Shown: positions 25,397-29,813 of the stretch, piece after piece
Position numbering within the stretch: the stretch's first letter is position 1
How the letters are laid out: each line of letters opens with the position of its first letter
Origin: a virus
Length of the DNA: 64,000 nt
IMG/VR virus record: IMGVR_UViG_3300045988_176782
Location: 32,001 to 96,000 of that record
Strand: one strand, 5' to 3'
Position numbers and translations under genes: made by a program
The notes under the pieces: generated by a model
What the model saw: the letters and a program-made list of their open reading frames with translations, nothing else
Told to the model about the DNA's origin: nothing
The model's database searches: none

Positions 25397-28300
25397 TCAA
25401 TATTTTACTAGAGAGAACATGTTTCCATCATTATCGCGGAGCACATTCAAAGTCATACTAAATCATTTTTCTTGCGTTGTATCGCTACTACAACTCTTAT
25501 AATTTCTTATAAGATGAGACTATATCATTCATCAATTTCTTGATTTAACTGCTCTTTCGAGTGCGCTTACACCCTACTTCCTTACGGAATAGTCGTTGAA
25601 CCTTAATCCAAAAATTTCCATTTATATCCAAAAGTGGTGATTCGTTTTCCTTCACATACCGCACGAATATTACGACCAGCCGCCGTAGGTTTGCCTAAAG
25701 CTCTTGCCGCCTCATTGGCTGAAGAAAAAGTGGCTATTAAATTTCCTTCTAAATCATATTGTCCAGTTTTTCGTCCGTGTGTTTTCTTGGCATTAACTGG
25801 AATAACACAATTATCTTCTTTATATTTATAAATTGAGTCTTTATAATGCGTAATCTCCCCACGACAATTCTGCGAAACAGCTTGATAGGGTATACCCATT
25901 TTTCTTGCGCATTCTTTTATAGATGCGAAACTTTCAATAAAAATCCCTTCTAAATTATAACGAGAAACTTCACGTTTTAAGCTACAAGTATTAGCTATAT
26001 ATTCTACTGCTCCTCCTGGTTTAATATTATAACCATATTGAGGATTTTGCGTTTTATACAATTGAATATAATATTTTTCTTTATCATTTAAATCTTCATA
26101 AGGGACTTCTTCTAAAATTTCTACAATAAAATTTTCATAACCATACTTTTCAAAAGCTCGCATAAGTGCCGTACAATTTCGATACCCTTTTCCGTCTTTT
26201 CCTGCACGAATTTTTAAAGACTCAATTGTTTTACCGACATATTTTTTATTAGATGGAGAAGTATAGCAATAAATAAAGCCATGATTTTCTTTTGGACGCT
26301 GTTTTAATAATTCTGTATTCATATTTTCCTTTCTTGGATTCTTGGCTGCTGATTGCCCAATCCTATTTTATGTTACTACAAATTTTTATATTTGTCAAAT
26401 TATTACTAATTTGTTGAGTTAAATAGGCTCTAAGGGGATTCCAGCAATTAAGCAGTTTTTACTTCCACATTTAAGCCGTGACTTTTCGGATTAGGTTCGT
26501 GGAAGGATCGCCTTCTGCCTGCATGGTTAAGGTTACTTCGCTCAACATCTTAGCCTTGTTGATGATGAATTGGAAAGCTTCATCCTTACCAGTGGCTTCA
26601 GAACGAATTAGAGCATCGCCTACAACCTTGTCATTTTTATTATCGTTTCCTAAACTTCTTATATTTTCATATAAGATTAGACTATATCTTCACACAAATT
26701 ATTTGAGTGTTCGGCACTAACCTCAAGGAATTTAGAGGTATTTAGTCGTTGAGCCTTGAGCAAGTTTTCCATTTAAATCCATAAGCCGTATTGGTATCTT
26801 TATCTAATACTTTACGAATTAAACTTGTTTCCTTTCCGAGACTTTTCGCCGCGGCAGTAATGGAAGGGAAAACTTGGATAATCTTCTTTGTTATTGGGTC
26901 AATTTGTTGAATTTGCTTCGCAGTGTTATTATATTTTTTAACCATTAAAATTTCTGTGCATTCCCAACGATAACCATAAGCACTTTTTAATTCATTACGA
27001 CAACAACGACGAATTGCAGAACGTTCACCGTTCACTGCTCTCGCCGCTTCTGCTAAAGAAGGAAAAGTGTTTATCAATATCCCGTCTAGAGAAAATTGCT
27101 TAATCTTTTTTTCACTATTATCTACAATTCTTTCATGAATAGGGAATCTATTTAATTTTTCATAGCTCCAACAAAAATTATATTGGGTATATACTTTATT
27201 TTCTAAACAACCTTGAAAAGTTTGAGGAACTGTATTAAAAGCTTTTGCAACTTCTGATATATTTTCCCACTCTCTTATAAAAGAACCGTTTTGACTTGAA
27301 TATTGATATACTTTTTTACGTTCTTTAGACCAGCCTTTTTGACCACCATCGGTTAAATTATAACCATTTGGCGCTAAAGTATTAAATAATTGAATATACT
27401 TTTTTTCAGCCTAGTCTAATTGGTTTTTTGGGACTTCTGCTAAAATTTCAACAGTAAAATTAGAAAAGCCATATTTTTGAATTGCTTTATAAAATAAATC
27501 ACACCCTTTATAGCATTTTCCATTATGGCCCGCTCTTTCTTGCAGAGAACGAGTTGTTTGCCCAACATAAGAAGAACCAGATGGAGATGTATATTTATAA
27601 ATAAATCCATAACCACTCTTTGGTCGTTTTTCCATTTTAATACTCCTTGGTTGCTGATTGCCGGCCATTTCAGGCTACGGTTTCCAGCAATTCACCGAAT
27701 TGATTTGCATTTTTTAACTCCCCGCGTGGAGCCCTACAATGTTGAGGAAAGGTTCCAGGGAATGTAGAAGGACTAATAACGATTTCAGAAGCGGTGCCTT
27801 CTTCAACTACTTCCTCTTCCCAGAAGAAACGAATCTTAGTGATTTCGGTGGCGGCATCAGCAAAAGGCTTAGTGCCAGTCTTTAAAGTAACAGTGAATTT
27901 CGCGGGATCGCTGCCATCATTAGTTACAGTATCAACTTCGCCAGAGCCACGTAGGCCGTGAGTCATGTCAACCCACTTAAACTTGAAGCCAGCCTTTACA
28001 ACATCCTCACCAGGGAAGTTGTTCTTACCGCCCATAGTCTTCCCATCACCCATTGGGAAGGTAAAGGTTTCACCAACCTTAAAGTTGCGTTCAGCGTTCT
28101 TATAAATAGTAACAGTGTGTTCGTCAGTGGACTTATTATACATCGCACCACCCATGATAATGCGTAGTTCTTCCCAAGATACTACAGCATCTTCTAGGGT
28201 TACATTGATGTCCTTACCATCATTATGTTACGTTTATGCCTTATCATAAACTCTTATAATTTCTTATAAGTTCAGACTATATCTTCATCTCACATGGCCG

Positions 28301-29813
28301 TGAGAGGCTGGTGCAGGAGAGCAAGGTTTTCGCTCCCTCTTAGTCGTTGGACCTTCCGTAAATACGGCTCGGCTGCTGATTGTCTTCGGCATTATCCGGT
28401 CAGAGTTCCCAGCAATTCTCCAGCTTTTTAACTTAATGTCGCCATTAAGGGGACCTATGGTAAAATTAAGTCCCAAGTGACCAATTTAGGATTCATTGTG
28501 TTCCACATAGTTCGCTAATCTATGCGCGGATTTCTCCTGCTTATGATTTCTCATAATGTTCAGACTATATCTTCATCTTTAGATGGGTCTAAAGAGTCCC
28601 CTGTTTCGTGAGGCTTCTCACTACAATTAGTCGTTGAACCTTTCTCTTTTGGCCTTAAGAGATTTGGCTGCTGATTATCCAATCTTGATTTATGTTACTA
28701 CAAATTTTTACATTTGTCAAATTATTACTAATTTGTTGAGTTAATCAAGCTCTAAGGACGTTCCAGCAATTAAGAGGATTTTTCCGTTGAGGCAAACCTA
28801 AGTATGTATGTCAACCCCAACCGCCCTGAGCTGAAACATTTTCAGCAGTAGTTTCTACAGTAGAAACCTTTAGGGTATTTAAATAAAGTACAATATCGCC
28901 GGCTTTGATGTCTCCTTCGTCGGCTAGAGCTTGGAAATAAACGTTAGCTACTTCCTTAATCAATTATGTTACGATTGAACCTGTTATCAATCTCTTATAG
29001 TTTCCTATAAGTTCAGACTATATCTTCATCCGATTTCTCGGAGTCTTGCACAGGAGAAGCAGGATTTTCTTCTCGCTTAGTCGTTGAGCTTTCTAAAAAG
29101 TATTTCCAAACATATCCTCCCGCAGTTTTTCGCTTGCCACGAACACATTGCGTAATAGAACTACGACAAGTTCCAGTCTATTCACTTGCCTCACGTTGAG
29201 AATCATAAACTTTTAACAAATGGCCCTCTAAATCATATTGTGCTACTTTTATTTTAGACGCTTCCGCACCTAAAGGCTGAACCTTTTCAACCCATTCTTT
29301 TACACTTTCTTCACGATGTTTCCCAGAAAAACTATGTTTAGTATTTTCAGAATAAGTAGTCCATTCTAAATTATTAACACAATTATTAGATTTATTAAAA
29401 TCTTTATGATTTACAACAGGATAATTATTTGGATTACTAATAAAAGTAGAAGCTATAATTCTATGAGCACGATATAAATGTCGAGATAAAGATACTAATA
29501 AATAACCATCTTTGTCTTTCCATTGTGAAACAAGTTCTTTTGTGCTTTTATCACGAATTTGCCCATTCTCACAAGCTTCATAATTATTATCAACGGGAAC
29601 TGTTTTCCACATTATTTATTGTCTCCTTTTTAGCTTAGTTGCTGATAGCCCATTGTTGCATCTTATTATTTTTTAAACATTCACGCTTGCATTTGCACGC
29701 TTCGTTGTAGTAAATAAGCTTTAGGGCGTTCCAGCAATTCACAAGAATTGTCAGTAAGAATTGCTCCTTACAGTGGCATTTCTACCATAACGTTCAAAGA
29801 TGTTAATGGCCAT
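25397..29813 (-). CDS. major tail (tube) protein in six exons: join(29813..29784,28960..28814,28493..28469,28220..27750,26631..26481,25463..25397), 296 aa
   Basis: The spliced product is continuous: MAINIFERYG|IKEVANVYF...SAQGGWG|NPKLVTWD|YGKDINVTLEDA...STFPGT|YKVVGDALIRSEATGKDEAFQFIINKAKML...GDPSTNLIRKV|FSMTLNVLRDNDGNMFSLVKY*. Every junction has U at -1 and G at the intron end. Two 5' sites have in-frame alternatives (29772, 26493). No TAG in any exon. Confidence 0.75.
25464..26480 (-). mobile_element. group I intron with GIY-YIG endonuclease (tail tube intron 5)
   Basis: On the - strand: P AATTGCTGGAATCCCC (~26434-52), Q AATCAGCAGCC (~26341-53), R GGTTCAACGACTAT (~25589-602), S GAATGATATAGTCTC (~25517-31). 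Omega-G is at 25464. The 5' site is 26481 (P1 AAGU/GCUU) or 26493. Confidence 0.75.
25603..26322 (-). CDS. GIY-YIG homing endonuclease (239 aa)
   Basis: GFIYCYTSPSNKKYVGKT...RAGKDGKGY...YIQLYKTQNPQYGYN is a GIY-YIG domain. C-terminal repeats (ARKMGIPYQAVSQN, ARALGKPTAAGRNI, FGYKWKF) look like I-TevI-type DNA-binding modules. It lies inside the intron. Confidence 0.85.
   Translation of the reverse strand: MNTELLKQRPKENHGFIYCYTSPSNKKYVGKTIESLKIRAGKDGKGYRNCTALMRAFEKYGYENFIVEILEEVPYEDLNDKEKYYIQLYKTQNPQYGYNIKPGGAVEYIANTCSLKREVSRYNLEGIFIESFASIKECARKMGIPYQAVSQNCRGEITHYKDSIYKYKEDNCVIPVNAKKTHGRKTGQYDLEGNLIATFSSANEAARALGKPTAAGRNIRAVCEGKRITTFGYKWKFLD
26632..27749 (-). mobile_element. group I intron with GIY-YIG endonuclease (tail tube intron 4)
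   Basis: P GAATTGCTGGAAACC (~27675-95), Q AATCAGCAACC (~27650-60), R CTCAACGACTAAA (~26742-55), S GTGAAGATATAGTCTAA (~26679-95). P1 pairs exon GGAACCU with GGGCUCC (one mismatch, U-G at the splice site). Confidence 0.75.
26742..27635 (-). CDS. GIY-YIG homing endonuclease (297 aa, 1 in-frame TAG)
   Basis: ATG 27635 follows AAGGAG. GFIYKYTSPSGSSYVGQT...RAGHNGKCY is GIY-YIG. TAG at 27411 joins it in frame to the AYGYRWE / AYGFKWK DNA-binding half. The gap was checked and has no TAA/TGA. Stop TAA 26742-44. Confidence 0.8.
28221..28468 (-). mobile_element. group I intron, ORF-less, 248 nt (tail tube intron 3)
   Basis: P AATTGCTGGGAAC, Q ACAATCAGCAGCC, R GGTCCAACGACTAAG, S GATGAAGATATAGTCTGAAC. 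P1 is perfect: exon GGGACU pairs with GGUCCC (U-G at the site). The intron ends ...AACGTAACATAATG. Confidence 0.85.
28494..28813 (-). mobile_element. group I intron, ORF-less, 320 nt (tail tube intron 2)
   Basis: P TTAATTGCTGGAACG, Q ATAATCAGCAGCC, R GGTTCAACGACTAA, S GATGAAGATATAGTCTGAAC. P1 pairs exon GGGGU with GCCUC. Its P5/P6 periphery is near-identical to intron 25464-26480. Confidence 0.85.
28961..29783 (-). mobile_element. group I intron with HNH endonuclease (tail tube intron 1)
   Basis: P GAATTGCTGGAACG, Q CTATCAGCAAC, R AGCTCAACGACTAAG, S GATGAAGATATAGTCTGAAC. The intron ends CGTAACATAATTG. P1 pairs exon UGGU with GCCA, and P2 is GTAAG/CTTAC. An alternative 5' site lies 12 nt downstream (29772). 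Confidence 0.75.
29013..29612 (-). CDS. HNH homing endonuclease (199 aa, 1 in-frame TAG)
   Basis: VVNHKDFNKSNNCVNNLEWTTYSENTKH is an HNH motif. TAG at 29178 continues the frame into ...GGYVWKYF... The ORF runs through R into S, ending ...DEDIV* at TGA 29013-15. Confidence 0.8.

Follow-up and report, generated by a model that had tools for sequence, protein, structure and literature searches.

Several phage genes interrupted by more than one group I intron have been described. The closest to the one treated here is orf142 of Staphylococcus phage Twort, later recognised as the tail tube gene. It is described as having three group I introns (Landthaler & Shub 1999, PNAS 96:7005, as cited in PMC10136302 and PMC11878797), a 23-nucleotide (nt) micro-exon between two of them (PMC10136302) and documented exon skipping (PMC10136302, PMC11878797). 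In the Bastillevirinae and SPO1-like phages, the DNA polymerase and terminase genes carry a reported maximum of three IA-type introns per gene, with HNH (NUMOD4/I-HmuI-like) or GIY-YIG genes in a loop. These introns exist with and without an open reading frame (ORF), are inserted in conserved core genes, and affect DNA metabolism or packaging genes rather than virion structural ones (PMC11878797). Recent surveys likewise find phage introns concentrated in DNA-metabolism genes (PMC11878797). Here we analyse a stretch of 64,000 nt of viral DNA (positions 32,001 to 96,000 of the IMG/VR record IMGVR_UViG_3300045988_176782), hereafter the window, in which the major tail (tube) gene is split into six exons by five predicted group I introns (Table 1).

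The gene resembles Twort orf142 in being a phage tail tube gene with several introns of IA type and in having a micro-exon between two introns (25 nt here). It differs in having five introns instead of three, in that three of these carry endonuclease genes, and in its product, which going by the descriptions belongs to another tube family: orf142 encodes a 142-amino-acid (aa) myovirus tube, the window a 290-aa siphovirus tube of the YomU type. We regard the locus as being of the same kind as the known multi-intron phage genes, with Twort orf142 as the closest. In the open-access literature, the highest reported number of introns in one phage gene was three (Twort orf142; Bastillevirinae polymerase and terminase). 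Five is thus the most that we found reported for a phage gene, a record that is provisional because the search was limited to open-access papers. If it stands, the known upper limit for self-splicing introns in one phage gene would rise from three to five, and this in a gene for a presumably abundant virion structural protein instead of one of DNA metabolism.

Our reading, which we hold to be very probable, is that five group I introns came to interrupt the major tail tube gene by homing and that late RNA is spliced to give the 290-aa tube protein. An earlier note on this DNA had already proposed the division into six exons by five group I introns. This proposal agrees with the intron cores, the guide pairings, the homologues and the intron-minus alleles presented below.

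Table 1. Features of the interrupted tube gene and of its introns in the window.
Feature	Position	Strand	Remarks
Interrupted major tail (tube) gene	25397..29813	minus	six exons and five predicted group I introns; spliced coding sequence 873 nt, 290 aa
Shine-Dalgarno sequence AAGGAGG	29823..29829	minus	9 nt 5' of the tube-gene ATG at 29813-29811; read from sequence
Exon 1	29784..29813	minus	30 nt; MAINIFERYG, an N-terminus conserved in all homologues
Intron 1	28961..29783	minus	823 nt, phase 0; group I core and HNH ORF in the P6 loop region
Exon 2	28814..28960	minus	147 nt
Intron 2	28494..28813	minus	320 nt, phase 0; without ORF
Exon 3	28469..28493	minus	25-nt micro-exon; NPKLVTWD + 1 nt; 100% identical in L008
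Intron 3	28221..28468	minus	248 nt, phase 1; without ORF
Exon 4	27750..28220	minus	471 nt
Intron 4	26632..27749	minus	1118 nt, phase 1; group I core and GIY-YIG ORF
Exon 5 (corrected)	26499..26631	minus	133 nt; placed from protein alignment, intron-minus alleles and P1/P10
Intron 5 (corrected)	25464..26498	minus	1035 nt, phase 2; group I core and GIY-YIG ORF; C-G at the 5' splice site
Exon 6	25397..25463	minus	67 nt including the TGA stop
Intron-1 HNH homing endonuclease ORF	29013..29612	minus	about 199 aa; NUMOD4-HNH-NUMOD1/I-HmuI-like; one in-frame TAG at 29178-29180
Intron-4 GIY-YIG/NUMOD1 ORF	26742..27635	minus	about 297 aa; one in-frame TAG at 27411-27413
Intron-5 GIY-YIG/NUMOD1 ORF	25603..26322	minus	239 aa, intact, without TAG; Pfam and PHROG matches

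The Rfam covariance model RF00028 matched all five introns. Introns 2 (78.5 bits) and 3 (71.9 bits) exceed its gathering score of 50 bits. In every intron the core motifs follow the same order: AATTGCTGG (J3/4-P4), a variant of AATCAGCAGC (P4'-P6), TCAACGACTA (J6/7-P7) and GATATAGTC (P7'). Intron 1 has motifs A, C and D in order, and its motif B (TATCAGCAAC) departs from the consensus at two positions. The motif AGATATAGTC occurs six times in the window when 0.09 occurrences are expected by chance. Core matches in all five introns, together with this excess, go far beyond chance. All introns end in G, and the 5' exon ends in U for introns 1 to 4. Helix P1 pairs GUUGGGGU with GCCUCAAC in intron 2 (8 base pairs (bp) with U.G), comprises 6 bp with U.G in intron 3, and reads CUUCCAC/GUGGAAG in intron 5 (7 bp, with C-G at the splice site). 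Uninterrupted P10 runs measure 3, 4, 9, 4 and 6 bp for introns 1 to 5, respectively, and those of introns 2 and 4 pair further past a mismatch.

The secondary structure is conserved beyond the window. RNAalifold recovered P4, P5, P6, P7 and P9 from nine related ORF-less introns of the window and its relatives, and 9 of the 23 predicted pairs stay paired through two-sided changes, chiefly in P5 and in the P9 GNRA hairpin. This covariation count concerns the nine-sequence subset, as the MAFFT alignment of 20 introns misaligned a subfamily with a long P5. In BLAST searches, the introns resemble known phage introns (from Staphylococcus, Bacillus, Streptococcus thermophilus and crAss-like phages) only in the core, at about 74% identity. 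On these sequence features we class the five intervening sequences as group I introns.

Removal of the introns yields a protein that aligns in one piece with known tail proteins. By tblastn, the spliced product matches uninterrupted proteins of isolated phages in GenBank over 97-100% of its length at 30-36% identity (Bacillus phages Thrax3/5, PBC2, FADO, Izhevsk, Kirov and PJN02, Brevibacillus phage Sundance, and the Lactococcus 949-group phage phiL47). The Bacillus phages Thrax3/5, Izhevsk, Kirov and PJN02 are large siphophages, and the matched homologues are labelled 'major tail protein' or 'tail tube protein'. A metagenomic protein collection contains 4,985 homologues, with which the spliced product is colinear over 100%; the best 120 of them have 57-95% identity, are almost all full-length and carry a precomputed match to PF27173 (YomU_Tube). 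The spliced protein matches PHROG 2729 ('virion structural protein') at 2.9e-47, and a Pfam scan with a profile set that did not include PF27173 gave no match. The gene also lies where a siphovirus tail module would have it, upstream of the tape measure gene: the minus-strand order is portal, head genes, tube, tube paralogue and tape measure. With TAG read as sense and after splicing, the tape measure gene spans 24427..12058 and is recognised by tape-measure PHROGs; the portal gene occupies 38278..36692. A near-identity DNA search of phage GenBank records returned only matches of 33-47 nt, all to intron cores, so that no isolate with a sequenced genome is related to this phage at the level of DNA.

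The homologues also locate the junctions. Junctions 1 to 4 fall without indel inside invariant or nearly invariant blocks (ERYG|IKEV, GGWG|NPKL, TWD|YGKD and FPGT|Y(K/R)V) and junction 5 inside the block DPST|F, so that all five introns sit in the most conserved stretches of the tube protein. The earlier note had pointed to continuity of the protein through GGWG|NPKLVTWD and FPGT|YKVVGD, and the alignments bear this out. It had also taken colinearity of uninterrupted homologues with the unspliced sequence as grounds for refutation; we found the opposite, since the homologues are colinear with the spliced sequence only. An in-frame TAA or TGA lies 0-26 codons past each 5' splice site. From its 25-nt length, skipping of exon 3 would shift the reading frame. 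The sequence GGAACCTACAAGGTTGTAGGCGATGC marks junction 4 of the predicted spliced RNA.

Close relatives that lack single introns provide independent evidence on the junctions. Four independent contigs have 91-97% DNA identity to the window in the tube region: L008 (IMG/VR UViG_3300045988_173030, 168 kb), L003 (UViG_3300045988_170892, 166 kb), L001 (Logan assembly of SRR33881052) and L087 (ENA contig OLVS01000055.1, 100 kb). Intron 1 is absent from L087, whose sequence at this point, GAACGTTATGGTATTAAGGAAGT, is that of exons 1 and 2 directly joined. Intron 2 is absent from L003 and L087, where TGGGG(T/C)AACCC runs straight across the site and an intron of their own lies 6 nt upstream (codon 57/58). 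Intron 3 is missing in L001, which reads TGGGACTATGGTAAGG, and intron 4 in L001, L003 and L087, which read GGAACTTACAAGG. L001, L003 and L008 lack intron 5. Each intron is therefore exactly absent from at least one close relative, which confirms every junction. Introns have been gained and lost among these relatives, and so have their ORFs: intron 1 is ORF-less in L003 (300 nt) and intron 4 in L008 (302 nt), and forms with and without the ORF exist for introns 1, 4 and 5.

The spliced tube frame is under purifying selection, with a ratio of non-synonymous to synonymous substitution rates (dN/dS) of about 0.1. Between the window and L008, dS is 0.241 and dN 0.019 (dN/dS 0.08). With L003 the ratio is 0.11, and the true value is slightly lower because the L003 reconstruction used the intron-2 boundary of the window, which introduced two artefactual substitutions. 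The reconstructed coding sequences of L008 and L003 are open and also 873 nt long. A frame that exists only after removal of five introns is thus conserved, which is indirect evidence for splicing.

The ends of introns 1 to 4 are those of the earlier note, as judged from the U/G ends, P1 and P10 pairing and the intron-minus alleles. The 5' end of intron 5 had to be moved. The note had given exon 5 as 151 nt, intron 5 as 1,017 nt and the coding sequence as 891 nt (296 aa), and its exon lengths, counted from the ATG at 29813, do reproduce an open 891-nt frame. We instead place the 5' splice site 18 nt upstream on comparative grounds, which changes these values to 133, 1,035 and 873 nt (290 aa). 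The former junction gives EGDPST-NLIRKV-FSMTLNV, when every homologue reads EGDPST|F(N/S)MTLNV. The relatives without intron 5 read GATCCTAGCACATTCTCTATGACT (L001 and L003) or GATCCTTCTACTTTCAGC (L008) across the site, i.e. GATCCT(AGC/TCT)AC(A/T)TTC. The window fits these alleles only if ...GATCCTTCCAC (end at 26499) joins ATTTAGTATGACT (start at 25463). It is precisely this ligated junction to which the guide of intron 5, 5'-CUUAAAU|GUGGAAG-3', is complementary, with a P10 of 6 bp (AUUUAG/CUUAAAU). An ORF-less intron sits at this site also in more distant relatives of about 47% amino-acid identity (L011, L012 and L081), and there too the boundary is CCAC|G and the guide GUGGAAG. In these contigs P10 covaries with the 3' exon, GCUGAAU pairing with AUUCAGC or GUUCAGC.

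The two placements make different predictions. With the corrected junction, spliced RNA of the window type should contain the 23-mer GATCCTTCCACATTTAGTATGAC, where intron-less relatives have CCTAGCACATTCTCT or CCTTCTACTTTCAGC, and the protein should give the tryptic peptide AEGDPSTFSMTLNVLR. With the former site, the RNA would read CGAAAAGTATTTAG, i.e. a cDNA with CGAAAAGT|ATTTAG, and the peptides would be AEGDPSTNLIR and DPSTNLIRKVFSM. It is unlikely that this site (26481|26480, AAAGU|CACG) is the right one. It has the canonical U at -1 and can form a 4-bp hairpin (AAGU/GCUU) with U.G, and the frame stays open. However, the resulting NLIRKV insertion falls exactly at the junction and inside the invariant EGDPSTF block, the 18 additional nucleotides are missing from the three intron-minus relatives, and no P10 pairing is available. 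The orthologous ORF-less introns of the more distant contigs also lack such a U site. An alternative register of intron 5 (exon ...ACG, intron ...GA) was rejected, as it needs a G at -1 plus a terminal A.

With the corrected site, the last nucleotide of exon 5 is a C that pairs with a G of the guide, in place of U.G. U.G at this position is nearly universal among group I introns. A natural precedent for another pair is reportedly given by Hur and Waring (1995), in fungal mitochondrial introns, unlike the phage intron here. A curated intron database regards the U.G pair as completely conserved and uses the splice-site U as a filter for inclusion (PMC11835236). Five contigs, at two levels of divergence, share the C at -1: the window (26499|26498), L011 (about 7273), L012, L081 (about 6745) and L087 (about 9677). 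It occupies the second codon position of Thr269, a residue invariant in the family, where a U would encode Ile. Constraint on the protein at this codon would explain why the C is kept. Searched for by exact match, the exon 5/intron 5 junction was not found in viral contigs, and a metagenome scan found it in one independent contig. The intron-5 lineage offers a natural experiment on whether group I splicing can dispense with the U.G wobble.

The resulting scenario would be as follows. An uncultured large siphovirus of about 165 kb, with TAG as a sense codon and a tube of the YomU-type family, would have received five mobile introns of the phage IA type in its tube gene through endonuclease-driven homing into conserved targets. 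The late pre-mRNA would lose all five by the two-step group I reaction. Free guanosine would attack the 5' splice site presented in helix P1, and the freed 5' exon would then attack the bond after the terminal G while helix P10 holds the 3' exon. The outcome would be an 873-nt mRNA for the 290-aa tube protein.

Several observations weigh against this interpretation. In the window, the scores of introns 1, 4 and 5 do not reach the gathering score of Rfam: intron 1 has 38.4 bits, intron 4 has 38.9 (3' half) and 22.1 (5' half), and intron 5 has 29.4. This results from the ORF insertions, which split the RF00028 matches; ORF-less orthologues score above it (75 bits for intron 1 in L003, 77.9 for intron 4 in L008 and 62.8 for intron 5 in L011). 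The P1 of intron 1 has only 4 bp (UGGU/GCCA), and that of intron 4 has one A.C mismatch in its 7 positions. The efficiency of intron 5 is uncertain given its lack of the U.G pair that the database regards as conserved. Among the Bastillevirinae introns that spliced, four of eight did so in infected cells only (PMC11878797), so that 'self'-splicing in vitro is not guaranteed here. The assignment as a tail tube gene relies on the precomputed Pfam name of the homologues, on how GenBank records annotate them, on the order of the genes and on a PDB profile search whose matches, the 'tail tube protein' chains 8k98_A and 9jgh_A, were non-significant at E = 0.27. The AlphaFold model of one homologue (P0002) has a predicted local distance difference test score of 54.7, too poor for using the fold. 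Finally, we infer from sequence the splicing of the five introns, the activity of the endonucleases and any need for protein cofactors, as well as the terms 'self-splicing' and 'most highly expressed' that the earlier note had applied to this gene.

Other accounts of the same sequence are less probable still than the former junction. The count of five introns might reflect a metagenome assembly chimera of strains with different intron sets. Intron content is indeed highly polymorphic among co-occurring strains and no other contig examined has all five, but we find this explanation very unlikely. L008 is independent and has introns 1-4 in the arrangement of the window over a continuous alignment of 4.1 kb, and the exons have diverged evenly over the length of the gene. 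Four introns each are present in L003 and L008, and at least three, probably four, in two further contigs (L079 and L081). In L087, introns 3 and 5 occur together; its intron 5 includes the ORF and has 96% identity, which speaks against an assembly artefact as the source of this intron.

A second downstream YomU_Tube-like gene raises another alternative: it could supply the tube function, leaving the interrupted gene, overrun by mobile elements, to decay as a pseudogene whose introns, one of them with a non-canonical splice site, need not splice. We regard this as slightly more improbable than the chimera. The low dN/dS (0.08-0.11 at dS 0.24) extends across three intron-bearing alleles, no exon has a frame defect, the guides are kept complementary to the exons, and the tandem paralogue also follows uninterrupted tube genes (e.g. 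in L006 and L007). One could also see the insertions as free-standing endonuclease genes that separate fragments translated on their own and assembled afterwards, as in some T4-like split genes. Three insertions do carry endonuclease ORFs. However, two have no ORF, all five have group I cores, and the exons of 25, 30 and 67 nt lack a start codon or ribosome-binding site, so that we give this explanation almost no weight. We therefore retain the reading of a functional tube gene with five spliced introns.

The downstream paralogue (25300..24485, minus strand) is a divergent YomU_Tube/PHROG 2729 protein of 271 aa, with the TAG at codon 247 read through, and lies directly after the tube gene. The tandem pair is also present in the relatives L001, L006 and L007.

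We then surveyed 86 loci with a homologous tube gene from IMG/VR and Logan. The gene is uninterrupted in 67 of them and interrupted in about 17. Nine distinct insertion sites are in use (in window codon numbering: 10/11, 38/39, 57/58, 59/60, 62/63, 67/68, 224/225, 264/265 and 270/271), four of which are no more than 33 nt away from the invariant GGWGNPKLVTWDYGKD block. The window, with five introns, has the most seen in the surveyed loci. L079 and L081 each show a gap of about 1 kb at site 57-60, which is why a fourth intron is probable in both. Near-identical contigs with zero to five introns at nine sites record the gain and loss of introns and the loss of endonuclease genes, and could be used to study homing dynamics. 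It is conceivable, though we would not expect it, that with five group I introns in 873 nt this gene exceeds in intron density every protein-coding gene so far seen in viruses or bacteria, in a TAG-recoded lineage where the gene would be a homing hot spot with at least nine sites.

Some details of the survey concern single sites. Alleles without the site-59/60 intron have GGC for Gly59 in L004, L006, L007 and L087. The window has GGT (28814, minus strand), which supplies the U of the U.G pair, and L003 also has GGT though it lacks an intron there. In the tube gene of L081 (6540-6962), a 17-nt exon (GAGGGAGATCCTTCCAC) lies between two introns. The same contig has three tandem introns about 34 nt apart in a downstream gene (11056-11818), and similarly tight packing is seen in L079 and L010.

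The endonuclease ORFs lie between the second and third core motifs, i.e. in the P6 loop region between P6 and P7. The labels that they had received in the earlier note (HNH in intron 1, GIY-YIG in introns 4 and 5) hold in Pfam and PHROG searches. The intron-1 protein matches NUMOD4, HNH_3 (22.4 bits, just under the cut-off of 24.8), NUMOD1 (30.7) and I-HmuI_NUMOD-like (31.2). In the proteins of introns 4 and 5, the GIY...YVG motif is accompanied by NUMOD1 (61 and 42.9 bits), and both match PHROG 314 ('homing endonuclease'). Two of the ORFs overlap the catalytic core. The intron-1 ORF reads through J6/7-P7 and P7' (29013-29087, minus strand) and ends at a TGA right after GATATAGTC, and the last codons of the intron-4 ORF (SRLND*, 26742-26752, minus strand) are encoded by CTCAACGACTAA in the J6/7-P7 core.

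The ORFs of introns 1 and 4 have exactly one in-frame TAG each and no other defect. The phage almost certainly reads TAG as an amino acid, to judge from its coding sequences. With TAG as sense, the minus strand shows an ORF of 3,323 aa (22029..12058) with 37 in-frame TAGs and further ORFs of 1,466 aa (10346..5946), 694 aa (24445..22361), 562, 536 and 528 aa. No comparable gain resulted when TGA was taken as sense. The decoded 528-aa ORF matches a portal profile from end to end, and joining the 694-aa ORF to the start of the 3,323-aa ORF gives a tape-measure profile match across the join. Gln is the commonest residue opposite the TAG codons of the window in relatives; with TAG as Gln, the NUMOD1 and I-HmuI-like domains of the intron-1 protein are complete across the TAG. 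No suppressor tRNA was found in the 64-kb window, where the tRNAs are Leu-CAA, Lys-TTT and Ile-TAT (56678-57190). Because TAG would be read as sense, the endonuclease ORFs of introns 1 and 4 are probably intact. That they are degenerate pseudogenes was rejected once the recoding became clear.

Recoding of intron endonucleases has been described elsewhere. In recoded phages, a family of group I intron endonuclease genes preferentially uses recoded stop codons, and it was proposed that this delays endonuclease production until late infection (Borges et al., bioRxiv 10.1101/2021.08.26.457843). The window resembles these gut phages in its in-frame TAGs throughout late genes and in having an intron endonuclease with a recoded stop. 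It differs in that the tube coding sequence has no TAG codon; that study also concerns recoding and not multi-intron genes. Introns and TAG recoding together cause gene callers to fragment the tube gene and others, so that such phages will be systematically mis-annotated.

The window contains 11 group I intron cores in total. One intron (22030-22360, minus strand; RF00028 65.5 bits) splits the tape measure gene. Its two parts, 24427..22361 (694 aa) and 22029..12058 (3,323 aa), join to a protein of about 4,000 aa, and the junction construct gives one continuous tape-measure PHROG match. Five further cores are found at 4327-4570 (plus strand) and, on the minus strand, at 31805-32104, about 39130, 40423-40577 and 42913-43156. 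The one at 31805-32104 is absent in L087; in L003 and L008 it contains about 770 nt of additional inserted sequence, which is probably an ORF. The ORFs at 39106-40032 and 40483-41442 look like intron-borne endonucleases and may lie within the terminase region.

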